Assembly: GCF_025353065.1 (NCBI RefSeq)
Contig: NZ_JANXRJ010000031.1
Span: 18,938-82,937, forward strand
DNA length: 64,000 nucleotides
Direction: 5' to 3'
DNA from: Lapillicoccus sp.
GTDB lineage: Bacteria; Actinomycetota; Actinomycetes; Actinomycetales; Dermatophilaceae
In this document: positions 894 through 60,883 of the stretch, one piece after another
Layout of the letters: each line of letters begins with the position of its first letter
Position numbering within the stretch: position 1 is the first letter of the stretch
Position numbers and translations under genes: made by a program
Notes under the pieces: generated by a model
The model's database searches: none
What the model saw: only the letters and a program-made list of their open reading frames with translations
Told to the model about the DNA's origin: nothing

Positions 894-1907
894 CTACGGC
901 GCGTGAGCCGCCCCGGGGCCGGTGCCCGTACCGGTCCCGGCGCTCGTCCCGTTGGCGGGGTCACCGGCCGCACCGGAGCCGGCGCTGGTGAGGAGCTGGT
1001 GCCGACGCGCATACGTCCACCCGGCGAATGCGGCGAGGACGTCGACGACGGTCACGACGAACCGCGAGAGGATCGCGACGGCAGCGGCGCCCGGGGTGGA
1101 CAGCGCCGAGCCGAGGACGAGGGTGAGCAGCCCCTCCCGGGCGCCGAGGCCGGCGGGCAGGATCACGGTGAGCGTGCCGAGCGACCCGGAGAGGGCATAC
1201 CCCGTGAGGGCGGCGGTCGTCAGGCCGGCGCCGGCGCCGGTCCCCCCCACGGCCCGGGCGAGCACGAGGAGATGGCCGCCGAAGCACAGCCACGCGAGGA
1301 TGTAGAGGCCGACGGTGAGCAGCACTGCGCGAGTGGAGAGCTCACGCTCGAGAGGCTCACGCCGCAGCACCCGCAGACCGAGAGCGACGACCCGGTTGAG
1401 GGTCGCCGGCCAGCACAGCACCAGCAGCACGACGAGACTCACGAGGAGGGCCGCCGAGAGCGGGGCTCCCCCGGTCCGGATGAGGTGCGGGACGGCCGGC
1501 AGGCCGACGAGCAGACCGGTGACGATCGAGAGGCCGATGGCCACCAGTCCGACGACACCGGTGCGTCGCCGGGGCACGCCGAGACGGCTGGCCATGTCGG
1601 CCTGCGCGACGACGCTCCAGACCGACCCCGGAAGGTACTTCCCCAGCTGCCCGACGAAGAAGACGCCCGCCGCCGGGGCGAGGTGCAGCGGTGAGCCGAG
1701 ATCCGTCAGCAGCACCCGCCAGCCGAGCATCGTGAGCAACGTGCCGACGGCCGCGAACAGCGTTGACAACGCGAGGGATCCGATATCGACCCGGGTGAGG
1801 TCGACCGAGATCTGCGACCAGGAACGGGCGACCCCCAGGACGACGACGGCGAGGACGAGCAGCGCGACGGCGACCCGGAGCAGGGAGAGGGCGCGGTCGC
1901 GGGTCAC
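894..1907 (-). CDS. lysylphosphatidylglycerol-synthase-like (UPF0104/flippase-like) integral membrane protein
   Basis: Only the C-terminal 337 codons of ORF 894..2591 look like protein (multi-TM, GQLGKYLPGSVWSVV motif). GTG at 1907 overlaps the stop of the upstream gene (GTGA, 1904-1907). Confidence 0.7.
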   Translation of the reverse strand: MTRDRALSLLRVAVALLVLAVVVLGVARSWSQISVDLTRVDIGSLALSTLFAAVGTLLTMLGWRVLLTDLGSPLHLAPAAGVFFVGQLGKYLPGSVWSVVAQADMASRLGVPRRRTGVVGLVAIGLSIVTGLLVGLPAVPHLIRTGGAPLSAALLVSLVVLLVLCWPATLNRVVALGLRVLRREPLERELSTRAVLLTVGLYILAWLCFGGHLLVLARAVGGTGAGAGLTTAALTGYALSGSLGTLTVILPAGLGAREGLLTLVLGSALSTPGAAAVAILSRFVVTVVDVLAAFAGWTYARRHQLLTSAGSGAAGDPANGTSAGTGTGTGPGAAHAP

Positions 1908-4069
1908 TGTCGCCTGAAGGTCAGGCGCACCAACCCATATGCCGTGTCCGCCGACGTCGCCGTCATCGCGGCTCCGGTCATCAGCGCAGACAGCTCGCCG
2001 TCGAGGTCGCCGACGAGGGTGAAACCGAACCCGTGCGCCCGCGCCACCACCCCCCTCACGTCGGCCGGCGCGATGGCACCGGGGGCGCCGGGCGGGCCGA
2101 GCGGGATGGTCACGACCAGGATGCCGCCGGGGCGCAGCAGCCAGGACGACGACGCAACGATCTCGTCGACGTCGTCGGCATCGCAGCCGCCGGGGTGCAC
2201 GCGCGCGATGACGTCCAGGGTCTCCATCTCGAGGTCGACCGCCGCGAGGTCGGCGCGGGGACCACCGAGGCCTAGCGACACCGGGGCGAAGCCGACGGCG
2301 CGAGCCCAGCGCGTGAGGGTCGACCGGGGTCCCGACTCGTCGACGACCACGGCGCTGCGGCGCCCGTCGTCGACGATGCGGATGACCGCGGCGAGCGCGC
2401 CGAGCGCCGACCAGGCCTCCGCCCCGTCGCGGACCCTCGGCAGCCCGAGCTCGCGCGCCACGACCTTCGCCTCGTCGCCGTCGGCAGCGTCGACGAGGAC
2501 GTCGGTCGGCACCACCCAGTCCGGCAGGTCGCTGCGCTGCATCGGCACGGTGGCGCGCGGGGTCCGATCCGCCCGCACCCGCTCGCGCCACCCCGCGACG
2601 ACCGCCCTCGTGCGGACGGTCATGCGGACGGCCAGGCGGACGGTCAGGGGTCCCACCGGGTCGGGACCCACGCCTCCGGGGGCGTCGCAGTACCCGGAGG
2701 TCGGCGCCCCGGCGGTAGGCAACCCCGAGGGAGAGAACCCGGAATCAATGAACCCGGAGGCAGAGAACCCGGGGGCAGAGAACCCGGAGTGAGTCGACCC
2801 GGAGGTGTAGGGCGACGCCAACGACTCGAGCACCCCCACGTAGTGCGCCCATTCGGCGGACAGGGCGCCGTCCTGGTCGTCGTCGTCCCTGCCGGTCCGT
2901 GGTGCCACCGTCTGCGCCCCGACCGCAGCTGGCCCGACCGCAGCTGGCCCGACTGCAGTGCCCGTCTCCCCGAACGTTGCCCGCCACACCGTCGCCCGCC
3001 CGTTCGGGGCGCGGCCCACGGGGACGCGACCGGTCCGTGCTCGCTCGAGATCAAGACACTGAGAGGGGGGTTGACGCATCCCGCGGCTGACGAGTCCTGC
3101 ACTGAGGAAACGGGATCCGAGAGCCAACCCGTGGCGTACCTCCCGCGCCACGGCGCCGATCGCGACCCGCGTCCGACCGCCCTGAACCTCCCGGCCGTCC
3201 CCGACCTCCCGGCCGTCCTGAATCTCGCGGCCGTCCTGAACCTCCCGGCCGTCCCCAACCTCCCGACCGGCCGGACCACCCCGACCGCCGGCGGGAGCGC
3301 CACCCGGTCGCCCCGTCGCCAGGACGTCGCGGGCACTGGGGGTCGCAGCGGTCAGGGTGCTGATCGCCCACGCCCCAGCGGAATTCCCCAGCATGACACC
3401 GGACGGGTCCCCCCTCGACTGCTCGGGGCGGGACGCCGGACGCGCGGTGACGCTGACCCGTTCGGCACCGAGACCGGTGGCCACCACGGCCGCCTCGTCG
3501 TCGTGCACGAGGACGGCGTCCACCCGCCGGACCAAGGCCGCCGTGAGTCGGTTCCCCACGTGCCACCCCCTGCGAGCCGTCCAACCGGACCGACCGGGAC
3601 GAGCCAACGGTTCTGCGGCCACGAGGACCATCCGGGGCCGGCCACCGTCCCGGGAGCCAGACGCGCCTGCGCCGTGAAGCAGTGCGAGCAGCGCCGGGAC
3701 GCTGCTGAGGCCGGAGTGGACGAGGACGATCACGTCGACCCCCCGCAACCTGCGGCCGGTGCGGGCCCAGGTGTCGAGGCGTGACCAGCCGAGGAGCGGG
3801 ACCGCTCGGGGAGCCGGAGCCCTGACCCAGGAGGGCTCGGCCTGCGCGGCCAGGCCGTCGGGGGCGACCCCGACCACCGGCGCCCCGGTCAGCAGCGTCA
3901 CGTCGTGACCCGCCTCGCGCAGCATGAGGTCGAGGTCGACGGTGAGCGACGAGATGGCTAGCGACGAGGCGGTGAGCGACGGGACGGTGAGTGACGGGGT
4001 CGCGGCCGGCCCGACGACGACGGCTCGCAGGAAAGCGGACTGGGGATCTGCACCACCGATGTCGCGCAT
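1904..4069 (-). CDS. large repeat-rich hypothetical protein (N-terminal glycosyltransferase-like, C-terminal methyltransferase-like); may really be two genes (C-terminal part could start at ATG 2542)
   Basis: 721-aa ORF. Ends resemble GT (LREAGHDVTLLT) and class-I MTase-like fold (VVVDESGPRS..LLRPGGILVV). The central ~290 aa is low complexity and encoded by four separate in-frame tandem repeat arrays. Confidence 0.4.
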   Translation of the reverse strand: MRDIGGADPQSAFLRAVVVGPAATPSLTVPSLTASSLAISSLTVDLDLMLREAGHDVTLLTGAPVVGVAPDGLAAQAEPSWVRAPAPRAVPLLGWSRLDTWARTGRRLRGVDVIVLVHSGLSSVPALLALLHGAGASGSRDGGRPRMVLVAAEPLARPGRSGWTARRGWHVGNRLTAALVRRVDAVLVHDDEAAVVATGLGAERVSVTARPASRPEQSRGDPSGVMLGNSAGAWAISTLTAATPSARDVLATGRPGGAPAGGRGGPAGREVGDGREVQDGREIQDGREVGDGREVQGGRTRVAIGAVAREVRHGLALGSRFLSAGLVSRGMRQPPSQCLDLERARTGRVPVGRAPNGRATVWRATFGETGTAVGPAAVGPAAVGAQTVAPRTGRDDDDQDGALSAEWAHYVGVLESLASPYTSGSTHSGFSAPGFSASGFIDSGFSPSGLPTAGAPTSGYCDAPGGVGPDPVGPLTVRLAVRMTVRTRAVVAGWRERVRADRTPRATVPMQRSDLPDWVVPTDVLVDAADGDEAKVVARELGLPRVRDGAEAWSALGALAAVIRIVDDGRRSAVVVDESGPRSTLTRWARAVGFAPVSLGLGGPRADLAAVDLEMETLDVIARVHPGGCDADDVDEIVASSSWLLRPGGILVVTIPLGPPGAPGAIAPADVRGVVARAHGFGFTLVGDLDGELSALMTGAAMTATSADTAYGLVRLTFRRQ
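2721..2810. repeat. 15-bp tandem repeat x6 (aacccggaggcagag-like) inside ORF 1904..4069
   Basis: Read directly; encodes SGF-type pentapeptide repeats on the minus strand. Confidence 0.9.
2918..2960. repeat. 15-bp tandem repeat x~2.8 (cccgaccgcagctgg)
   Basis: Read directly; encodes AVGPA repeats on the minus strand. Confidence 0.9.
3174..3263. repeat. 18-bp tandem repeat x5 (cggccgtccNNaNctcc)
   Basis: Read directly; encodes GREV(G/Q)D hexapeptide repeats on the minus strand. Confidence 0.9.
3941..4000. repeat. 15-bp tandem repeat x4 (ggtgagcgacgNgNN)
   Basis: Read directly; encodes PSLTV-type pentapeptide repeats on the minus strand. Confidence 0.9.
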
Positions 4070-4105: not shown

Positions 4106-4984
4106 GTGACCCGCCGGACCGGGTCCCAGCGACTGGGCCGGGAGATCGGATGGGTACCGTCAGGCGTGCCCACCGAGCGATCCGTCCTGCCCGCCGACGT
4201 GCTGGCCACCGCGTTGCGTGCGGACGCGACACGCCCTCGCCTCACCTTCTACGACGACGCGGTGGGGCCGACCCGGGGTGAGCGGATCGAGCTCTCGGCC
4301 AAGGTGCTCACCAACTGGGTCGCCAAGGCGGCCAACGCCCTGCAGGAGGATCTCGACGTGACGTCGGGCAGCCGCGTGCTGCTCGACCTGCCGCTGCACT
4401 GGCGGGCGGTCTATTGGGCCTTGGCGGTGTGGTCGGTGGGCGCGACCCTCGTGCTGCCGGGAGCCGGCGACCGTGCCCCCAGCAACCGCGCCCCCAGCAA
4501 CCGCGGCCCCAGCACCGGCACTGTGGCTGATCTTGGCGGGGACATCGCCTTGGTCGTCAGCGACGACGTCACCGTCGTCGCGGGGGCGCACAGCTCAGGC
4601 ACGGGAGCGGTCCTCGTCAGTCTCCCGATGCTCGCCCGCGGGCACCTCGACACCCCCGGCGGCGTGTTCGACGAGGCACGTGAACTCGCTACGTACGGTG
4701 ACGTCTTCGACGCCTGGGAGTCCCCGTCTCCCGCCGCCGTCGCGCTCGTGGGGGCGGCGGGAGTGGCAGCCGGCCCGGCGGCATACGGCGCGCTGGTCGT
4801 GCCCCGACCCGAGTGGGGGGACCGCCCCCGGGTCGAGCTGGCGGGGACCCTCGACCGGGTGCTCGTCGACGCCCTCTCCGCCTGGTATGCCGACGGTTCG
4901 GTCGTCCTGGTCCGTGACCCGGACGGCGAGCAGCAGGCCCGTCGCACCTCCGAGGGTGTGACCGTCAGGCTGAGTGGGGGCTGA
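4106..4984 (+). CDS. TIGR03089-like actinobacterial conserved protein (acyl-CoA-synthetase N-terminal-like)
   Basis: RPRLTFYDD..GERIELSAKVLTNWVAKAANALQ pattern; found next to LCP genes in Actinobacteria (cf. Rv3268 by memory). Start uncertain. Confidence 0.6.
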   Translation: MTRRTGSQRLGREIGWVPSGVPTERSVLPADVLATALRADATRPRLTFYDDAVGPTRGERIELSAKVLTNWVAKAANALQEDLDVTSGSRVLLDLPLHWRAVYWALAVWSVGATLVLPGAGDRAPSNRAPSNRGPSTGTVADLGGDIALVVSDDVTVVAGAHSSGTGAVLVSLPMLARGHLDTPGGVFDEARELATYGDVFDAWESPSPAAVALVGAAGVAAGPAAYGALVVPRPEWGDRPRVELAGTLDRVLVDALSAWYADGSVVLVRDPDGEQQARRTSEGVTVRLSGG

Positions 4985-12206: not shown

Positions 12207-13272
12207 GCACGCCTGGCTCGCCGAGCACGCCGAGCACGCTGAGCACGCTGCGCACGCCAGCGCGCGGGGGCCTGGTCGACGTCCACGCCCACGTCCTCCC
12301 CCCGGGCTACGTCGAGGCCGCCGTCGCCGCAGGACACACCACGCCCGACGGTATGCCGGCCTGGCCGGTCTGGTCCCTCGAGCAGCACCTGCGCCTGATG
12401 GACGAGGCCGACATCGAGCTGGCCGTGCTCTCGCTGTCCTCCCCCGGTGTAGACCTCAGCGGGCAGAACAGCAGGCAGGCGCGGGCCCTGGCGACCGCGG
12501 TCAACGACTACGTCGCCGAGCTGTGCGCGAGGCACCCCGACCGGTTCCGGTTCTTCGCCACCTTGCCGCTCCCCGCGATGGACGCGGCGCTGGCCGAGCT
12601 CGAGCGCGCCTGCGACGACCTCGGCGCCGTGGGCGCCGTCCTCACGACCTATGCCGGCGGCCGCTACCCCTCCGACCCGGTGATGGCGCCCTTGTGGCAG
12701 CAATTCCAGGCCCGCGGCACCACGGTCTTCCTCCACCCCACGTCCCCCCGGGCTGGCCGCAGACCGCTCTCGGCCTGCCCCGACCGCTGCTCGAGTTCAT
12801 GGTCGAGACGACCCGCGCGGTCGTCGGCCTCGTCGAGCACGGCACCCTCGCGGCATACCCCGCGGTCGAGGTCGTCGTCCCGCACTGCGGTGCCCTGCTG
12901 CCCGCGATCCTCGACCGGTGGGAGCTCTTCGCGACCCTGCCCGCCGGCCAGGAGGGCGCCGGGATGTCGAGGACAGAGGAGTCGGGGAGCAGAGAGTTGC
13001 CCGCCGCGGGGCTGCAGCGCCTCTGGTTCGACCTCGCCGGTACTCCCCTGCCCCACAACGCCGCCGCGCTGATTAAACGCGTCGGCACGGACCGGATCCT
13101 CTACGGGAGCGACCACTGCTTCACGCCAGCTGATGCGGTCCGACGGCAGATCGACTCGCTGGACGCCGGCTGGCGCGACGTGGCTGACACCCCCTGGCGG
13201 ACCCTCACCGCCCGAAACGCCCACGCGCTGCTCGGGACCGCTCACGACCCAACCAAGGAGACGTCATGCTGA
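12200..13272 (+). pseudogene. amidohydrolase-2 (ACMSD/decarboxylase-like) gene split by a frameshift in a C6 run (12744-12749)
   Basis: N-half (VDVHAHVLPPGY..TTVFLHPTSP) is in the frame of ORF 12200. C-half (PGWPQTALGLPRPLLEFMVETTRA..YGSDHCF) is in the frame of ORF 12163..13272. Confidence 0.75.
12223..12258. repeat. 9-bp tandem repeat x4 (gagcacgcY) at the amidohydrolase N-terminus
   Basis: Read directly; encodes STP/STL triplets. Confidence 0.85.
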
Positions 13273-13901
13273 CGCTCGACCGTGAGATCCTCAGCTTCCG
13301 CACCATCGCGATCCTGCCCATCGCCCTGTTCACCCCCACGCTGATCCTGGGCGTCGCTCTGCCGGGCTCGAAGGTCGGTGCGGCCCTCGGGATGCTGTTC
13401 CACCTCTCGGTGCTGTTCCTGGTCAGCCGGATGCCGGCGCCCGACTGGGCCCGGGCAGCGGGGTTCGCCTGGCTCGCGCTCGACATCACCAGCGGCGCGA
13501 TGACGCTGAACAACGTCCCCTACGACATCGCCTTCCCCGTCCGACTCGGCGGTCACGTCCTGGCCGCGACCTGGATCATCACGGCCGCGTTGCTCTGCCG
13601 ACCACGCTCGGAGCGGATCCTCGGCGTCGTCGTCGGCCTCTGGCTGGGCATCTACACCTTCTTCGGCAGCGTCCTGCCGGTCAGCCTGCTGGCGCCTCCC
13701 GGAGTCCTCGTCGTCGTCTGGTTCGGACTGCTCGCCTGGCACCACGAGACCACCCCGACCGCGCCGACCGCGCCGACCGCACCCACGACGGACGCCACCC
13801 GCCGCGCCGATGGCCCCGCCGTCGGCGGGGTGCGAGGCGGGATCACGCTCGACCACCCGGACCCGGGTCCGGCCCGCGGACGTCGTAGGAGCCGGGCCTG
13901 A
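13266..13901 (+). CDS. hypothetical multi-pass membrane protein
   Basis: AAGGAG RBS plus ATG overlapping the upstream stop; about 5 hydrophobic helices; TAPTAPTAP tail. Confidence 0.6.
   Translation: MLTLDREILSFRTIAILPIALFTPTLILGVALPGSKVGAALGMLFHLSVLFLVSRMPAPDWARAAGFAWLALDITSGAMTLNNVPYDIAFPVRLGGHVLAATWIITAALLCRPRSERILGVVVGLWLGIYTFFGSVLPVSLLAPPGVLVVVWFGLLAWHHETTPTAPTAPTAPTTDATRRADGPAVGGVRGGITLDHPDPGPARGRRRSRA
13755..13781. repeat. 9-bp tandem repeat x3 (ccgaccgcg) encoding PTA repeats
   Basis: Read directly. Confidence 0.85.
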
Positions 13902-42594: not shown

Positions 42595-43017
42595 ATGGCG
42601 AGCGTGGGTGTCACCAGCACGAGCAGCAGGAGCAGCACGAGCGGCACGACCTGGACCATCGCCGAGATCGCGGACGACTTCGACATCACCCATCGCACCG
42701 TGCGGCACTACGAGGAGCTCGGCCTGCTCTCCCCCGAGCGCCGCGGCACGCAGCGGGTCTACCACCGCCGCGACCGCACCCGCCTCAATCTCATCCTGCG
42801 CGGCAAGCGACTCGGCTTCCCGCTCGAGGAGATCCGCACGATCATCGACCTCTACGACGCCCCCCGCGGTCGGTCGTCCCAGCTCGAGTACGTCCTCGGC
42901 CAGATCGACGACCGGCGCACCGACCTCGAGCAGCGTCGACGCGACCTCGACGAGGCACTCGCCGAGCTGGCCACCTTCGAGGAGCGATGCCGGGCGGACC
43001 TCGCCTGGCTGGGCTGA
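42595..43017 (+). CDS. MerR family transcriptional regulator (LiuR-like)
   Basis: WTIAEIADDFDITHRTVRHYEELGLL HTH; C-terminal coiled coil. Confidence 0.85.
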   Translation: MASVGVTSTSSRSSTSGTTWTIAEIADDFDITHRTVRHYEELGLLSPERRGTQRVYHRRDRTRLNLILRGKRLGFPLEEIRTIIDLYDAPRGRSSQLEYVLGQIDDRRTDLEQRRRDLDEALAELATFEERCRADLAWLG

Positions 43018-43030
43018 CGGCCAGCGCCCC

Positions 43031-43072
43031 CTCGGCACTCGTTGGGGCACGCTCGGCGCTCGTCGGGGCACC
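43031..43072. repeat. 21-bp imperfect tandem repeat x2 (ctcggcRctcgtYggggcac)
   Basis: Read directly in the convergent gap between merR and the hcp-like gene. Confidence 0.7.
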
Positions 43073-43090
43073 CCGGCACGAGGGGCTGGA

Positions 43091-43537
43091 TCAGGGCGTG
43101 TTGGTCGTGAGGTTCCAGGTGACCCGCTTCCCCGAGATGAGGAAGTTGAGCAGGCCGAAGTTGAGCGAGTAGTTGACGGTGAGCCGGTCCTCGCCGCCGG
43201 AGCCGCCGAGGCTGACCGAGCTGACGAGCACCGTGGTGAGGGTGTAAACGTCGTTCGTGGTCCCTCCACCCGTCGTGGGAGTCACGAGGGTGAGGACCGC
43301 AGAGGTGCTGGTCAAGCCTCCGAGCATCTTCTGGGTCAGCGGAGCGGTCGCGGTGTCGACGTAGCTGGTGAAGGACAGGTCCTGGATGGCCGGCTTGGCG
43401 CCACCACCACCCCCGACGACGACGGTCGGGTTCGACGCCCCCCAGGAGAACGCCAGCACCGTGAGGGCTCCGACGAAGCCGACGTCGGTCGATCCACCGG
43501 TGACTCCCGGGATCTTCAGGTACATGCTGATGCTCAT
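43091..43537 (-). CDS. hcp: Hcp1-family (type VI secretion tube protein-like) protein
   Basis: MSISMYLKIPGVTGGSTD..AFSWG, GGGGGAKPAIQDLSFTSYVD, VLVSSVSLGGSGGEDRLTVNYSLNF: the three hallmark Hcp blocks. Confidence 0.8.
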   Translation of the reverse strand: MSISMYLKIPGVTGGSTDVGFVGALTVLAFSWGASNPTVVVGGGGGAKPAIQDLSFTSYVDTATAPLTQKMLGGLTSTSAVLTLVTPTTGGGTTNDVYTLTTVLVSSVSLGGSGGEDRLTVNYSLNFGLLNFLISGKRVTWNLTTNTP

Positions 43538-44154
43538 CGGGTGGTCTCTCGATCAGTGGTGCTGTCGGTGGCGGGAGCGGTGTCAGAAACGGTGTCCCAA
43601 GCGGAGGGAGCCCACCCGTCGAGGACGATCTCGTAGCGCGCCGACCCGTCACCTCCGAGGTCGACCCGCTGCTGGTGAGCGACGTAGCTGCCGCTGCACC
43701 CGGCATACCGGCCGGTGCCGCCGATGACGGCGAAGACGCCGTGCCCCTGCAGGTCGACCGTCCCGGACCCGACCAGCGTCCCGCCGGGGAGGGTGAAGAG
43801 ATGCTGCTCCAGCGTCGAGGCCGTGCCGCCGTGGGGGGGCTGCCCGCGGTCGTGCAGTCGCACCACGTCGGAGTGCAAGGTGCCCGTGCCACCGCCGGAC
43901 GTCGTCACTGTCGCGGTGACGACGGAGCGCTCCCCGGCTCGTGCCACGAGGTGCTGGACCGCCCCGGGTCGGGCAGCGGCCGGGGCGTCGATGCGGCGAA
44001 GTCCGCTGCCCGACAACGATATTCGCGTCGTCCCACCGGAGGTCACGGACCCCGTCGTCGCCCGGGCAGGACTTGCGGCTACGACGCCCGCCGCCGTGGC
44101 GGCGGCACCGACGGCCGCGGAGGCGAGGACGGACCGACGCGTGCTGAAGGCCAT
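43534..44154 (-). CDS. Tat-signal secreted protein, dirigent/allene-oxide-cyclase-like beta-barrel (tentative)
   Basis: GAAGGGA RBS plus ATG 44154; STRRSVLASAAVGAAATAAGVVAASPARA signal; AVIGGTGRYAGCSG motif; stop overlaps the hcp ATG (ATGA). Confidence 0.6.
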   Translation of the reverse strand: MAFSTRRSVLASAAVGAAATAAGVVAASPARATTGSVTSGGTTRISLSGSGLRRIDAPAAARPGAVQHLVARAGERSVVTATVTTSGGGTGTLHSDVVRLHDRGQPPHGGTASTLEQHLFTLPGGTLVGSGTVDLQGHGVFAVIGGTGRYAGCSGSYVAHQQRVDLGGDGSARYEIVLDGWAPSAWDTVSDTAPATDSTTDRETTR

Positions 44155-44329
44155 GTCTGGTCCCTTCGAAGAGCCGGGTTGTGAAGGCACACGCTAGACC
44201 TCGATCGGCGCGCTGCATAGAGGCCGGAGCCGGGGCGCCCCAGCCAGCGTGCGAGGCTGGTTCCCCAGCTCGATCACCACCCACGGCCGCGACGACCCGG
44301 CCACCACAGACGACGACGAGGTGCTCCGC

Positions 44330-45226
44330 ATGACCACCGCAGCAGACAGCACGATCTCCGACTACGCCCACCCGGAGCGGCTCGTGACGACCGCGTGGCT
44401 GGCGTCCCAGATCGAGGCAGGAACCGTCGGCACCCCTGGCGGCATCGTCCTGGTCGAGTCCGACGAGGACGTCCTGCTCTATGACACCGGCCACATCCCG
44501 GGCGCCGTCAAGGTCGACTGGCATACCGACCTCAACGACGACGTGACCCGCGACTACGTCGACGGGGCGCGCTTCGCTGAGGTGCTCGGTGCCCGCGGCA
44601 TCGGCCGCGACACCACCGTCGTCATCTACGGAGACAAGAGCAACTGGTGGGCGGCCTACGCCCTGTGGGTGTTCAGTCTCTTCGGCCACGAGGACGTCCG
44701 GCTGGTCGACGGCGGGCGCGCGAAGTGGGTCGCCGAGGGCCGCGAGATGACCCGTGACGTGCCGACCCCGACGCCGGTGGACTACCCCGTCGTCGAGCGC
44801 GACGACGCGCCGATCCGCGCCTTCAAGGACGACGTGCTCGCCCACCTCGGCAAGCCCCTCGTCGATGTCCGCTCCCCCGGCGAGTACTCCGGCGAGCTGC
44901 TGCACATGCCCGACTACCCCCAGGAGGGCGCGATGCGCGGCGGGCACATCCCCGGCGCCCGGAGCGTGCCGTGGGCGAAGGCGGCCAACGAGGACGGGAC
45001 CTTCAGGTCGCGGGCCGACCTCGAGGCGCTCTACCAGGTCGAGCAGGGCCTCTCCCCCGAGGACGACGTCGTCGCCTACTGCCGCATCGGCGAGCGCTCC
45101 TCCCACACCTGGTTCGTGCTCACGCACCTGCTCGGCTTCGAGCACGTCCGCAACTACGACGGCTCGTGGACCGAGTGGGGCAACGCCGTGCGCGTCCCCG
45201 TCGAGAAGGGGGCGCCCGAGAAATGA
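44330..45226 (+). CDS. sseA: thiosulfate sulfurtransferase (tandem rhodanese)
   Basis: [24 protein letters not shown] active-site loop. Confidence 0.9.
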
Positions 45227-55117: not shown

Positions 55118-55495
55118 TCAGCTCCGCTCCGATGGTGCGACCACGTCGTCGGCGACGACGTCCAGGGACGTGACCATGAACTCCTCGCCGGTCCGCACCG
55201 TGATGGTGCCACCGCCGCACGACCCGCAGGTCAGCATGAAGACGTCCGCGGCGGTCGTGCTCTCGCCGCACGACAAGCAGTCGAGGACGACCGGCACCTG
55301 GTCGATGACCAGCCTCGAACCCGCCAACGGCGAGTCCTGGGTGACCATCCCCCAGCAGAACTCCAGCGACTCCGGGACGACCTGACGCAGCTGTCCCACC
55401 TGGAGGTTGACTGCCTCGACGGAGTGGCCGGGCCTCAACGCCAGCGCTCTCCCGACGATGTCGTAGATGCTGCAGCACAACGAGAGCTCATGCAC
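55118..55495 (-). CDS. hypA: hydrogenase maturation nickel metallochaperone HypA
   Basis: GTG start giving (M)HELSLC..; CLSCG..CGSCGG zinc site. Confidence 0.85.
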
Positions 55496-55708
55496 TGCCG
55501 CTCCCCTCGAGGTTCTGCGGCGGCCGCTCGACTGCCACCTCCGCGCCATGGTCGACGTGCGTTGGCCCCACTTTCCAGCTCTGGGGCATCTCGATCAAGA
55601 AACGTGCGCGTGTCAGCGCGGGCTCTCGGGTGCGCCCGGTGGCGAATGCCAACTATCGGCGCCTCCGGAAACGGCCAGTGCCGGGTCCGGCGGTGGGAGG
55701 GTGGGCGT

Positions 55709-58191
55709 ATGCGGGTGCGGGTGATCACCGACCGGTTGACCCCAACGGGTGACGTGCTCGTCCCAGACGTGCCCGGGTCGAGGCTGCCCCGCCTACGCCG
55801 ACGACGTCGGATCGTGGTGCGGGGCGTGGTGCAGGGCGTGGGCTTCCGGCCACACGTCCTGCGGCTCGCCGAGGCGCTCGGCCTCGAGGGGACCTGTCGC
55901 AACGACGCCACCTGTGTCGTGATGGAGGTCGGGGGCGACGCCGACCACGTCGACGCCTTCGCCCGCCGACTCGAGTCGGAGGCACCACCCCTGGCCCGCA
56001 TCCTCTCGGTCGAGGCCGTCGACCTCGATCTCCTCGACGACGACGACGACACTCCCATGGAGACAACGGGATTCACCATCACCGCATCGACGACCGGGCC
56101 CGGCGCCCGGACCATGGTGCCGCCCGACACCGCCGTCTGCGCCGACTGCCTGGCGGAGATGCGCGACCCGGAGGACCGGCGCTACCGGCACCCGTTCATC
56201 ACCTGCACCAACTGCGGCCCCCGGTTCACGATCACCCGCGACCTCCCCTACGACCGACCGGCCACCACGATGGCCGCCTTCCCCCTCTGCGGCGCCTCTG
56301 CCGCGGAGTATGCCGACCCCCACGACCGTCGTCACCACGCCCAGCCCATCGCCTGCCACGACTGCGGGCCGACGCTCCGGGTCCTGTCGTCCCGTGGGGC
56401 CGAGATCGCCTCCGGCAGTGAGGAGTCCGTCCGCGCTACCGTCGCGGCCCTGCGGGACGGAGCCATCGTCGCGGTCAAGGGCATCGGCGGCTACCACCTG
56501 GTCTGCGACGCGACCTCGGGCACGGCGGCGACCGTGCTGCGGGCCCGCAAGCACCGACCCGACCAGCCGTTCGCGGTCAGGGTCCGCGACCTCGCCACCG
56601 CGGCAGATCTCGTCCACGTCGACGGCGCCGAGACCCTGCTGACCTCGTCCGAGCGCCCGATCGTGCTCCTCCGGCGCCGGGCCGGGGCCCCCGTCGCGGA
56701 GTGCGTCGCGCCCGGGCTCGACGACCTCGGCGTCCTGCTGCCCTACGCGCCGCTCCACCACCTCCTCTTCGCCGACCTGCCCGACGGTTCCCCGGGCACG
56801 CCCGAGTCGTTGGTGATGACCTCGGGCAACCTCTCCGGCGAGCCGCTGTGCTTCGAGGACGCCGAAGCGGTGGCCCGCCTCGGCGGGATCGCCGACCTCT
56901 TCCTGACCCACGACAGGGAGATCGCCGTCCCCTGCGAGGACTCGGTCGTCGCCTGGCACGAGGGCGAGGTGCTGCCCATCCGTCGCTCCCGCGGATATCG
57001 CCCCTCCCGGTCGTCCTCGGCCACGACACCGATCTCGTCCTGGGCGCCGCGTCGGGCGTCGTCCTCGCCGCCGGCGCCGAGGTCAAGAACACCTTCGCGC
57101 TGGCCCGTGACGGGATGGCCTTCGTCTCTGCGCACCTCGGCGACCTCGGCTCGCTCGAGAGCCGCACGGCATACGGACGGGCGACGGCCCAGCTGCTCCG
57201 GTTCCACCGCAGCACACCGGAGGTCGTGGTGGCCGACCTCCACCCCGGGTATGCGTCCCGGGCCTGGGCCCGTGACCTCTCGCGTGAGCTCGGGGTCCCG
57301 CTCCACGGAGTCCAGCACCACCACGCCCACCTCGCGTCGCTCGCCGCCGAGCACGGGCGGCTCGACGACCCGGTGCTGGGTGTGGTCTACGACGGCACGG
57401 GCTACGGCTGCGACCGGTCGGTATGGGGCGGTGAGCTGCTCCTCCTCGGTGACCGTGGCCTGAGCGCGACCCGCCTCGGCCACCTCGGGGTCGTCCGGCT
57501 CCCCGGCGCCGACGCCGGCGTGCGCAACCCCGTGCGCACCGCTGCGCTGGCGGTGCTCGCCGCCGGCGAGGACTGGGTCGGCACCCCGCTCGACCCGGCG
57601 CTCACCGATACCGAGAAGCGAGCTCTCCCGGCCCTGCTCGCATCCGGCACGAGCATCGTCCCCACGAACAGCGTCGGCCGGCTGTTCGACGTCGTGGCCG
57701 CGTTGCTCGGCGTCCGCGCGAGGGTCAGCTATGAGGCGCAGGCTGCCGTCGAGCTCGAGGTGGCAGCGCGGCGGTGGCACGAGCGGCCCGACCCACTCCC
57801 GACGCAGGTCCCCCTGTCCCTGCCCGTGGTCGTTTCCGCGACGACCGGCCTGCCGAGCCTCGACCCCGATCCACTCGTCCGCGGCCTCGTCGCGGCGGTC
57901 CGCGACGAGGTCCCCACCGGACTGCTCGCGTGGTCGTTCCACGTCGCCCTCGCAGCCGCGACGACCGGGCTCGCGGCGGAGCAGGCGACGGCTCGAGGGG
58001 TCCGGACCATCGGGCTCTCCGGAGGCGTCTTCGTCAACCGGCTGCTCGTGACCCTGGTCCGTGACGCTCTGACCGACCGTGGCTTCGAGGTGCTGACCCA
58101 TCGGCTCGTGCCGGCGAATGACGGCGGTCTGTCCCTCGGCCAGGTGGCGGTCGGTGCCAGACTCCTCGCATCACGACACGGAAGGTCCTGA
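55709..58191 (+). pseudogene. hypF: carbamoyltransferase HypF, reading frame broken at the C4 run 57001-57004
   Basis: Acylphosphatase domain, zinc fingers and YrdC part are in the frame of ORF 55424 up to IRRSRGY. The Kae1-like part ([17 protein letters not shown]..) is in the frame of ORF 56701..58191. Confidence 0.85.
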
Positions 58192-58193
58192 CC

Positions 58194-58450
58194 ATGTGCC
58201 TCGGCGTACCCGGACGCATCACCGACCGATGGCAGCAGGAGGACGGCGCCGTGCTCGCGCACGCCGACTTCGTCGTGAGATCCGCGTCATCCGGCTCACC
58301 TACCTACCCGACCTGGAGGTCGGCGACTGGACGATCGTCCACGCCGGGTTCGCCCTGACGAAGCTCGACGCCCAGGAGGCCGGCGAGACCCTCGCCCTGC
58401 TGCGCGACGTCGGGCTGCTCCCTGCCCCGGCCGAGCCCGCCACCACCTGA
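58194..58450 (+). pseudogene. hypC: HypC/HupF-family paralogue, frame broken near 58271
   Basis: MCLGVPGRITDRW..AHADF is in one frame. REIRVIRLTYLPDLEVGDWTIVHAGFALTKLD is in the frame of ORF 58118..58450. Confidence 0.65.
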
Positions 58451-58511
58451 GAACCCACCGTCCGAGAGAACCCTCCCCGAGAGCCCTGCCCGAGAACAGA
58501 AGGAGAAGCCC

Positions 58512-58796
58512 ATGTGCCTGGCCGTCCCGGGACGAGTCCTGTCCGTCGAGGAGAAGGACGGTACGACGATGGCGCAGGTCGACTTCGGGGGGCTGCGCAA
58601 GGAGGTCTGCCTCGCCTACGTCCCCGACGCGAAGATCGGCGAATACGTCATCGTCCACGTCGGTTTCGCGATCCAGCGGCTCGACGAGCGCTCCGCCCAG
58701 GAGACGCTCGCCACCTTCGAACGGCTCGGCATCCTCGAGGAGGAGTTCGGCGACGGGTTCGCCCGGGCGGCCCGGCAGACGGGAGCACCGGCATGA
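58512..58796 (+). CDS. hypC: hydrogenase assembly chaperone HypC
   Basis: [26 protein letters not shown]. Confidence 0.85.
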
Positions 58797-59893
58797 AGTA
58801 CCTCGACGAGTTCAGCAACCCCGACCTCGCTCGCAGGCTGCTCGACCAGATCCACGCGGTCACCACCCGGCCGTGGGCGTTGATGGAGGTCTGCGGCGGC
58901 CAGACCCACTCGATCATCCGCCACGGCATCGACCAGCTCCTCCCCGAGGGGATCGAGATGATCCACGGCCCCGGCTGCCCCGTCTGCGTCACCCCGCTGG
59001 AGATCATCGACAAGGCCTTGGCGATCGCCGAGCAGCCGGGCGCCATCTTCTGCTCCTTCGGCGACATGCTCCGGGTGCCCGGCAGCGGCCAGGACCTGTT
59101 CTCCATCAAGAGCGCCGGCGGCGACGTCCGCGTCGTCTACTCCCCTCTCGACGCCCTCAAGCTCGCTCGCGACAACCCCGACCGGCAGGTGGTCTTCTTC
59201 GGCATCGGCTTCGAGACGACGGCGCCCGCCAACGCGATGACGGTCTACCAGGCTCGCCGCCTCGGCATCCACAACTTCTCGCTGCTCGTCTCCCACGTGC
59301 TCGTCCCTCCGGCGATGGCCGCGATCATGGAGTCGCCGAGCTGCCGGGTGCAGGGCTTTCTCGCCGCTGGGCACGTGTGCAGCGTGATGGGCACGTCGGA
59401 GTATCCGCCGCTGGCCGAGAGGTACCGCGTGCCCATCGTCGTCACCGGTTTCGAGCCGCTCGACATCCTCGAGGGGATCCGGCTGACCGTGACCCAGCTC
59501 GAGCAGGGGCGCCACGAGGTCGAGAACGCCTACTCGCGTGCCGTCACCGCCGAGGGCAACCTCCCGGCGATGGCGATGCTCCGGGACGTCTTCGAGGTCA
59601 CCGACCGGACCTGGCGAGGCATCGGCATGATCCCGCAGAGCGGGTGGAAGCTTTCCGAGCGGTATGCCGACTTCGACGCCGAGAGCAGGTTCTCCGTCAC
59701 CGATATCCATACCGAGGAGTCCTCGCTGTGCCGGGCGGGTGAGGTCCTGCAGGGTCTCATCAAGCCGCACGAGTGCGCCGCCTTCGGCAAGGACTGCACG
59801 CCGCGCAACCCGCTCGGCGCGACGATGGTGTCGTCGGAGGGCGCGTGCGCGGCCTACTTCACCTACCGCCGCCTCGAGCTGGTCCAGAGCTGA
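58793..59893 (+). CDS. hypD: hydrogenase formation protein HypD
   Basis: [27 protein letters not shown] motifs; ATGA overlap with hypC. Confidence 0.92.
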
Positions 59894-60883
59894 TGGGCGA
59901 GCGGACAGGCGGGCCGAACGGCATACGGGACATCGGGGCCCACGTGCTCGACGTCGAGGGCTGGACGTGCCCGCTCCCCCTGCGGGACACCCCGACGATC
60001 GTCATGGGCCACGGCGGCGGCGGCGCGATGTCGTCCGAGCTGATCGAGCAGCTCTTCCTGCCGGCCTTCGGCGGAGCCGCCCGACCTCGCCGTCAACGGC
60101 ACCGTCAACGACCTCGCGATGGCGGGCGCGACCCCCCTCTACCTCTCGACGGCGTTCATCCTCGCCGAGGGCACGGCCCTGACCGACATCGCCCGCGTCG
60201 CGATAGCCATCGGCAAGGCCGCCGAGGTCGCGGGCGTGCAGCTCGTCACCGGCGACACCAAGGTCGTCGACAGTGGCAGCGGCGACGGCATCTACATCAA
60301 CACAGCGGGGATCGGCGTGATCCCCGACGGGATAGACATCGGGCCGACCCGCGCCCGGATCGGTGACGCCGTCCTCATCAGCGGCGACATCGGGGTCCAC
60401 GGCATCGCCGTGATGAGCTGCCGCGAGGGCATCGAGTTCGGCACGAGCATCGAGAGCGACACCGCGCCGCTGCACTCCCTGGTGGCCGACATCCTCGCGA
60501 CCGGCGCCGACATCAAGGTCCTCCGGGACCCCACCCGGGGAGGGGTGTCGGCGACGCTCAACGAGATCGCCAAGGCGTCGGGGGTCGGCATCGAGGTGGT
60601 CGAGCGCGACTTCCCGATCCCGCCCGAGGTGCGGGACGCCTGCGGGCTGCTCGGGCTCGACCCGCTTCAGGTGGCCAACGAGGGCAAGCTCGTCGCCATC
60701 GTGCCGGCCGACCGCGCCGACGAGGTGCTCGCGGCCATGCGTTCGCACCCGCTCGGGGTCCGGGCCTGCCGCATCGGCACCTGCGTGCCGGAGCATCCGC
60801 GGATGGTCGTCGCTCGCACCGGGCTCGGCGGCACCCGCGTCATCGACCTGCCCATCGGCGAGCAGCTGCCGCGGATCTGCTGA
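59893..60883 (+). pseudogene. hypE: HypE with an internal out-of-frame deletion of ~40 codons near 60072-60084
   Basis: N-terminus (..MGHGGGGAMSSELIEQLFLPAFGG) jumps directly, in another frame, to DLAVNGTVNDLAMAGATPLYLS. The conserved AF(S/T)TDS..FFPGG segment is absent. The C-terminus is intact to PRIC. Confidence 0.8.

Follow-up and report, generated by a model that had tools for sequence, protein, structure and literature searches.

An Hcp-family protein encoded beside a Tat-signal barrel protein in an actinobacterium, and the two-gene module to which the pair belongs

In the usual view, Hcp and VgrG belong to the contractile machine with which double-membrane bacteria carry out type VI secretion. 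The 64-kb stretch of DNA analysed here, from a soil actinobacterium (referred to throughout as the window), nevertheless carries a gene for an Hcp-like protein at 43091..43537 on the minus strand, overlapping a gene at 43534..44154 on the same strand for a protein with a twin-arginine translocation (Tat) signal. What, then, is an Hcp protein doing in this organism, and why does it stand beside an exported partner? As set out below, there is strong support for the pair being a functional, operon-level two-gene module of a widespread family, in which a Tat-signal barrel of the allene oxide cyclase (AOC)/dirigent type is joined to either an Hcp or a short VgrG. The pair suggests that type VI parts have a use, so far undescribed, other than in the secretion system of that type (T6SS), and several accounts of how it might work are weighed in turn.

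The Hcp gene and its Tat-signal partner

The 148-aa open reading frame (ORF) at 43091..43537 is a bona fide member of the Hcp (TssD) family and has no signal peptide. An earlier reading of the letters of the window (hereafter the sequence-only reading) had called it Hcp1-type, and this was upheld by each of three comparisons. On PF05638 (T6SS_HCP) the ORF reaches 68.5 bits where 23.5 are required (E 8.7e-19), the match spanning positions 1-123 of the 129 in the profile, and a phmmer search of the PDB finds Pseudomonas aeruginosa Hcp1 (1y12) at E 7.6e-24. In the PDB alignment the window segment VLVSSVSLGGSGGEDRLTVNYSLNF falls on VLVSSVSTGGSGGEDRLTENVTLNF of Hcp1 as a near-identical block, reproducing almost exactly the resemblance noted in the sequence-only reading. 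The AlphaFold2 (AF2) model of the protein has a predicted local distance difference test (pLDDT) score of 90.2 and a Foldseek template modelling (TM) score of 0.86 to 1y12, and its top 50 Foldseek neighbours are T6SS Hcp proteins throughout, placing it in the Hcp beta-barrel fold. The sequence-only reading had named two Hcp profiles, and the second, NCBIfam TIGR03344 (VI_effect_Hcp1), gave no match to the window Hcp at E<=1; the Hcp homologue of locus L025 reaches 48.2 bits on it, under the 58.9 cut-off. The Hcps of the window's clade are without about 12 residues of the C-terminal hairpin loop found in Hcp1.

The partner gene encodes 206 aa, comprising a Tat signal, an AOC/dirigent-like eight-stranded barrel and a C-terminal tail that is not conserved. 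An in-frame GTG at 44190 offers an alternative start that would give 218 aa rather than the 206 aa from the ATG, but a Shine-Dalgarno-like GAAGGGA (44161..44167, minus strand), lying 6 nt upstream of the ATG, supports 44154 as the start. The signal peptide occupies residues 1-33 (44056..44154, minus strand; MAFSTRRSVLASAAVGAAATAAGVVAASPARA, followed by T). Its sequence STRRSVLASAAVGAAATAAGVVAASPARA matches the Tat consensus in its twin-arginine motif (STRRSVLAS...AASPARA), its hydrophobic h-region and its A-x-A cleavage site, and the region has low pLDDT in the AF2 model, as expected of a signal peptide. The twin-arginine signal proposed earlier is further borne out by its conservation, as the RR motif is present in 47 of the 48 family barrels with a complete N-terminus. 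The one barrel without it (L069) also comes from one of only two complete loci with neither Hcp nor VgrG.

The core of the partner (residues 42-179; 43618..44031, minus strand) is modelled as eight strands with pLDDT above 90 and contains the invariant motifs GGTGRYAG and LGGDG, with G145, G146, G148, G167, G168 and G170 as invariant alignment columns. Foldseek matches this core, with probability 1.0, to the mycobacterial pyocyanin demethylase PodA, plant dirigents, AOC and actinobacterial [4+2] cyclases, and a profile of the family run against the PDB finds PodA by sequence at E 8e-5. The pockets of the barrel resemble those of PodA and the cyclases. On the predicted structure, the partner core is thus an AOC/dirigent/PodA-type eight-stranded barrel. 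The suspicion of such a fold in the sequence-only reading held at the level of structure; the Pfam Dirigent match to the window partner was sub-threshold (E 0.049, 13.8 bits, cut-off 29.1). Some of the 91 partner relatives found have precomputed matches to PF18678 (AOC_like) or PF03018 (Dirigent), and the barrel homologue of L066 scores 21.3 bits on PF18678, under the 25.9 cut-off. Among 1.84 billion representatives, 126 clusters belong to the partner family at E<=1e-30; relaxing the threshold to E<=1e-10 raises the count to 524, and E<=1e-3 raises it to 2642.

The two genes meet in an ATGA overlap at 43534..43537 (minus strand), in which the stop of the partner and the start of Hcp are shared, an arrangement indicative of translational coupling; the earlier coordinates for this overlap and for both ORFs were exact. 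Databases name the genes of the module 'type VI secretion system protein Hcp/VgrG' and 'hypothetical protein', and nothing more.

Names of database entries also call for some care with the barrel. The AOC-barrel [4+2] cyclases 9qp8, 8of7 and 5dyq are deposited as 'Rhs family protein' or 'YD repeat-containing protein', and 8of7 and similar entries are known to be mis-named [4+2] cyclases (PMC10946715); genome records may conceal relatives of the partner under the same misleading names. The neighbouring PDB codes 9qp8 ('Rhs family protein') and 9qpe ('Hcp family...') were considered as a deposited pair and rejected as a coincidence, 9qpe being P. aeruginosa Hcp3 (PMC13323088).

Conservation, variants and surroundings of the pair

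Among close relatives, an identical Hcp protein was found on 10 contigs from different samples, with the partner present each time. In relatives at 60-90% identity the pair occupies the same position as in the window, with rhodanese-SufE genes on one side and MerR-acyl-CoA dehydrogenase genes on the other; the idea that it sits at a break in a conserved maf-sseA backbone was not confirmed. The ratio of nonsynonymous to synonymous substitution rates (dN/dS) among intact copies is 0.28-0.42, showing that the pair is under purifying selection. The sister lineage L008-L010 (about 93% protein identity, three independent assemblies) has a 1-nt frameshift in each gene, at L008:9480 and L008:10342 and likewise in L009 and L010. 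These sites, equivalent to about 44044 and 43188 in the window, fall just past the partner signal peptide and within the GGEDRLT motif of Hcp. The loss of both frames indicates that the module is dispensable there and that its genes decay jointly. Locus L019 has a more distant pair (about 50% identity) in other genomic surroundings. Some of the close relatives have genes for a YNCE-type beta-propeller and a polysaccharide deacetylase between Hcp and MerR (L001:10487-12594, L003:10476-12604 and L008:10450-12605); neither gene is present in the window or in L011.

More distant loci were sought in one genome per GTDB species, using the partner alignment alone as the query. The 50 loci obtained are all from metagenome-assembled genomes (MAGs), so that their taxonomy depends on binning, and fall in Actinomycetota (including Acidimicrobiia, Gaiellaceae and Frankiales), Chloroflexota (including Limnocylindria), Dormibacterota and Acidobacteriota, with one Symbiobacteriaceae and one Steroidobacteraceae. 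By a hidden Markov model (HMM) of Hcp, an Hcp ORF lies directly downstream of the barrel gene in 45 of the 50, with a gap of about -11 to +40 nt. The Hcps of these loci score 109-128 bits on PF05638, and an N-terminal extension or signal peptide was found in none of the module Hcps. The pair is therefore kept as neighbours in other Actinomycetota, where the sequence-only reading had proposed looking for it, and in several further phyla. Its description as an orphan Hcp is misleading, because the pair is an instance of a widespread module in which VgrG may also replace Hcp. One Ilumatobacteraceae locus has, besides the Hcp gene after its barrel gene, a second Hcp gene upstream of a methyltransferase gene (L042:3261-4016).

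The VgrG-type variant came to light when a scan for T6SS genes found VgrG in L051 and L066, two barrel loci without Hcp. Here a short VgrG gene is followed within a few nucleotides by the gene for a Tat-signal barrel (L051:4246-6201, L066:4198-6195, L072:8001-9960 and L073:8001-9982). The VgrGs of L051 and L066 have 492-495 aa and consist of Phage_GPD and Phage_base_V, without the C-terminal beta-helix domain (PF22178), and the VgrG-type loci are on high-GC 'Actinomycetota' contigs, where housekeeping genes flank them on either side. Within the short-VgrG clade, L072, L073 and the P0237 locus each have a barrel-sized gene directly downstream, which an HMM confirmed in the case of L072 and L073, bringing the loci with VgrG directly upstream of a Tat-signal barrel to five. 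L075-L077 are of the same lineage as L066, and L074 has a short VgrG with no barrel gene. A single MAG, SMAG_U3866, encodes both an Hcp-type (L024) and a VgrG-type (L051) module. Taken together, the two types of locus indicate that the Tat barrel is the constant element and the T6SS carrier protein the variable one. A 136-aa ORF of unassigned family directly follows the AOC-like gene of one VgrG-type module (L073:9979-10389).

Two other genes recur beside the pair. A HemK/PrmC-like S-adenosylmethionine-dependent methyltransferase of about 498 aa (DUF7059-MTS-DUF7782) adjoins the Hcp-type pair in 33 of the 45 loci, in all four orientations (within L021-L068; for example L024:6929-8425 and L025:7005-8492). 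A module of methyltransferase, barrel and Hcp is also present on the complete chromosome OY970397.1 (L067). In three Limnocylindria/Chloroflexota loci a third gene after Hcp encodes an Hcp domain fused to a conserved C-terminal region of about 230 aa (L058:6701-7810, L060:4465-5562 and L063:6623-7711), for which there was no match in Pfam, NCBIfam or PADLOC. Our literature searches turned up no paper that connects Hcp or VgrG to an AOC-like protein or to the Tat pathway, nor any mention of DUF7059, DUF7782 or PF18678.

The machinery that Hcp normally serves was searched for by tblastn in the 64-kb window and 70 loci (668 kb), the queries being 14 core proteins encoded by L071, a canonical T6SS locus. 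TssA, B, C, E, F, G, J, K, L, M and ClpV were found in none of these. In the window Hcp alone was matched, with no other T6SS or phage-tail gene in the 64 kb, in agreement with the sequence-only reading; the remaining genes there are metabolic or housekeeping by Pfam (acyl-CoA metabolism, purine synthesis, molybdenum hydroxylase, Hyp maturation). An anti-phage defence system was considered and set aside, as the PADLOC-DB defence models had no match for Hcp, the partner or the Hcp-fusion; the methyltransferase core matches mad2, generically. A phage origin was likewise rejected, since a search of 2.9 million viral contigs yielded nothing related to the partner and the structural neighbours of the Hcp are T6SS Hcps and not phage tube proteins.

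The rhodanese gene beside the pair belongs to a 90%-identity cluster shared with Lapillicoccus sp. and Intrasporangium flavum proteins, identifying the host as an Intrasporangiaceae actinobacterium. The window is 71.7% GC, and GC at third codon positions (GC3) is 0.90 in Hcp and 0.84 in the partner against 0.93-0.97 in the neighbours. The composition described earlier as host-like is so only roughly, with both genes slightly under their surroundings. Contamination or misassembly was rejected, as the pair is on an 85-kb contig amid Intrasporangiaceae housekeeping genes and recurs in 10 assemblies; the earlier view that it is not a recent contaminant stands on this ground. A promoter and terminator consensus scan of 42900-44400 found none, and is uninformative because the genome has 72% GC.

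Elsewhere in the window, hydrogenase maturation genes occupy 55118-60883 (HypA 55118-55549, minus strand; HypD 58514-59893, plus strand; HypE-like 60119-60883, plus strand), implying that the genome encodes, outside the window, a [NiFe]-hydrogenase, a classical Tat hitch-hiker enzyme. Four ORFs have no Pfam match at E<=1e-6 and show a coding-like GC3 signature: 1904-4069 (minus strand, 721 aa), 4106-4984 (plus, 292 aa), 13266-13901 (plus, 211 aa) and 56743-58101 (minus, 452 aa).

How the pair might work

The Tat pathway exports folded complexes in which one subunit only bears the signal, with a substrate size of about 20-70 Å (PMC4273604). Hcp acts as receptor, chaperone and carrier for small T6SS effectors (PMC5874247), and its loading starts from a 1:1 Hcp-cargo heterodimer (PMC13323088). 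The pair has the gene anatomy of a Tat hitch-hiker, in that the signal is on the barrel only, Hcp begins at profile position 1 and the genes overlap. A hitch-hiker pair is what best fits a signal on the barrel alone, an Hcp or VgrG without one and such tight coupling, and we tentatively favour, at something short of even confidence, an account in which the barrel joins Hcp while both are still in the cytoplasm and the two then pass through the membrane as one complex. Translational coupling would yield the two proteins in near-equal amounts; the folded barrel would bind Hcp in the cytoplasm, as small T6SS cargo does; and the twin-arginine signal of the barrel would then take the complex through Tat. 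A single-membrane bacterium would in this way deliver Hcp and a small-molecule-binding or -transforming barrel to its envelope or to the medium. Barrel-Hcp binding, co-export, stoichiometry, the ligand of the barrel and its biochemical role are all inferred.

Several observations weigh against Tat hitch-hiking. A closed Hcp hexamer, such as that of Hcp1, is about 85-90 Å across. Like a VgrG trimer, it would be at or above the size range reported for Tat cargo (PMC4273604), so that a 1:1 or other small complex is more plausible than a ring if the proteins are co-exported. The sequence-only reading had suggested that a signal-less Hcp ring may be exported by Tat; the lack of a signal holds, there being no N-terminal extension, and a closed ring would not fit. 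The pseudogenised module of L008-L010 shows that the pair can be dispensed with. The absence of T6SS genes holds for the 64 kb of the window and for the loci searched. The methyltransferase has no homologue in the 64-kb window, the window's clade or the VgrG-type loci, which rules it out as a part of the window's module and gives it a distribution that the hitch-hiking model leaves unexplained. In a mirror-tree comparison, the distances of the partner correlated with those of the methyltransferase at r 0.77 and with those of Hcp at r 0.46, the latter falling to a partial r of 0.05 when controlling for the methyltransferase; co-evolution of partner and Hcp beyond shared ancestry is thus unsupported. 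A neighbour-joining tree, which is crude and distance-based, makes the window-clade Hcps sister to proteobacterial T6SS Hcp1 (40-50% identity) and nearer to it than to most other module Hcps. Together the two results suggest that the Hcp slot is exchangeable, and neither shows specific co-evolution. Finally, two apparent natural fusions of barrel and carrier, L059 ORF 4080-5126 and P0358 (599 aa), match both families but are frameshift read-throughs, as seen from an unmatched linker and, in P0358, from an internal Tat signal where a frameshifted VgrG is read into a barrel gene; no Rosetta-stone support can be drawn from them.

The strongest competitor, which we consider doubtful but well worth keeping in view, is that Hcp or VgrG serves as a cytoplasmic chaperone, binding the barrel pre-protein and stabilising or silencing it until Tat export, and then staying behind. 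Such a role would resemble that of Tat proofreading chaperones as well as the effector-chaperone role documented for Hcp (PMC5874247). It draws on the same adjacency and coupling as hitch-hiking and avoids the size problem (PMC4273604), since no ring would be exported. A VgrG spike of about 490 aa would, however, be an odd chaperone for a 17-kDa barrel, and the Hcp-fusion, with its C-terminal domain of about 230 aa, looks more like carried cargo.

The frequency and the free orientation of the adjoining methyltransferase, and the closer agreement of barrel distances with it than with Hcp, raise another possibility: the exported barrel may act in a methyltransferase pathway and be co-regulated with Hcp or VgrG without any stable complex, the latter being an exchangeable accessory with a separate role. 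The structural relatives of the barrel (PodA, dirigents, AOC and [4+2] cyclases) are cofactor-free small-molecule enzymes, which would suit such a pathway. We nevertheless think this unlikely. The window, its clade and all VgrG-type loci retain the barrel and a T6SS-type partner without the methyltransferase, the barrel-Hcp spacing across the 45 loci is tighter than co-regulation needs, and Hcp is given no role.

A very unlikely explanation is that the pair is an orphan hcp-effector island serving a T6SS or other contractile injection system elsewhere in the genome. T6SS-positive genomes often encode hcp or vgrG off the main locus and beside cargo (PMC4793230), the module Hcp and VgrG are 40-55% identical to canonical T6SS proteins, and one MAG holds modules of both types. 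The TXSScan models are aimed at diderm bacteria with lipopolysaccharide (PMC4793230). Against such an island stand the host, an Intrasporangiaceae actinobacterium, the lack of any core T6SS gene in the 668 kb of loci, and the Tat signal of the cargo, which would be superfluous for a T6SS effector loaded in the cytoplasm. Most carriers, moreover, are from phyla in which no T6SS is known.

Least credible of all is that the pair came by horizontal transfer from a bacterium with a T6SS and now persists as a decaying remnant with no current function in the window genome, for although the frameshifts of the sister lineage, the slightly low GC3 and the place of the window-clade Hcp beside proteobacterial Hcp1 in the tree would accord with it, the ORFs are intact, the Hcp protein is identical on 10 contigs of different samples, dN/dS is 0.28-0.42 and the pair is conserved across phyla in different contexts.

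Returning to Tat hitch-hiking, a bolder version can be framed that we regard as quite improbable. Hcp and short VgrG may have been recruited as Tat passengers, each with its own signal-bearing AOC-like barrel, in single-membrane soil bacteria; once outside they would form a sheath-less tube or spike, or act as carriers, making up a non-contractile secretion or surface module derived from or ancestral to the T6SS.

The module among known systems

We file the module as a combination of two known kinds, a T6SS carrier-cargo pair and a Tat hitch-hiker pair. With the Hcp-cargo pairs of T6SS (P. aeruginosa Hcp1-Tse2 and Hcp3-Tce1) it shares the Hcp family and fold, at 40-45% identity to Hcp1 and the TM score given above, as well as a gene for a protein of about 17 kDa directly beside hcp; the VgrG-type variant mirrors vgrG-effector pairs in the same way. 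It differs in that sheath, baseplate, membrane complex and ClpV are all absent from the window and 70 loci, in being hosted mostly by single-membrane phyla, and in a VgrG that lacks PF22178. Moreover, Hcp-dependent T6SS effectors load in the cytoplasm without an export signal, whereas the 'cargo' of the module has a conserved Tat signal. Known Tat hitch-hikers (HybO-HybC of hydrogenase 2, DmsA-DmsB and PaoABC) are likewise encoded by adjacent, co-translated genes with the signal on one subunit, and in the Hcp-type module, as in these, the gene of the signal-bearing subunit comes first. The known ones, however, are cofactor-containing redox enzymes, while no cofactor site can be recognised in either module protein, and the proposed passenger is a structural protein of the phage-tail or T6SS kind, with co-export inferred.

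The barrel itself resembles the AOC-barrel clan (PodA, dirigents, AOC, AbyU, AbmU and PloI4) in its eight strands (Foldseek E 3e-5, TM to target 0.5-0.7), in its weak sequence relationship to PodA by family profile and in the common GGTG.Y motif region, but forms a family of its own (the 126 clusters at the strictest threshold) with a conserved Tat signal and an Hcp or VgrG neighbour. The orphan hcp/vgrG islands of T6SS-positive Proteobacteria also lie off any T6SS cluster and beside a small gene, yet they serve a T6SS in the same genome, whereas no T6SS could be detected near the module and the host phylum is not expected to have one. The extracellular contractile injection systems (eCIS/PVC) of Actinomycetota are comparable as phage-tail-derived parts in single-membrane bacteria, but consist of an Afp1/gp19-type tube with sheath, baseplate and ATPase in a locus of 15-20 genes, in contrast to one Hcp (PF05638) or short VgrG and one Tat protein.

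The module thus places close homologues of Hcp and VgrG (40-55% identity), under purifying selection, beside a Tat-signal barrel in Actinomycetota, Chloroflexota and Dormibacterota, and is relevant to how the parts of the T6SS arose and spread. Co-export of the two proteins, if it occurs, would mean that Hcp or VgrG travels by Tat, for the first time, and that a hitch-hiker pair need not be a redox enzyme, likewise a first; it would also be evidence that T6SS carrier proteins can work without the machine. If Hcp is only a cytoplasmic chaperone, it would represent a new class of Tat-substrate chaperone, and even then the module would define an uncharacterised family of exported barrels, about 100-500 in number, with PodA, dirigents and Diels-Alderases as its relatives.

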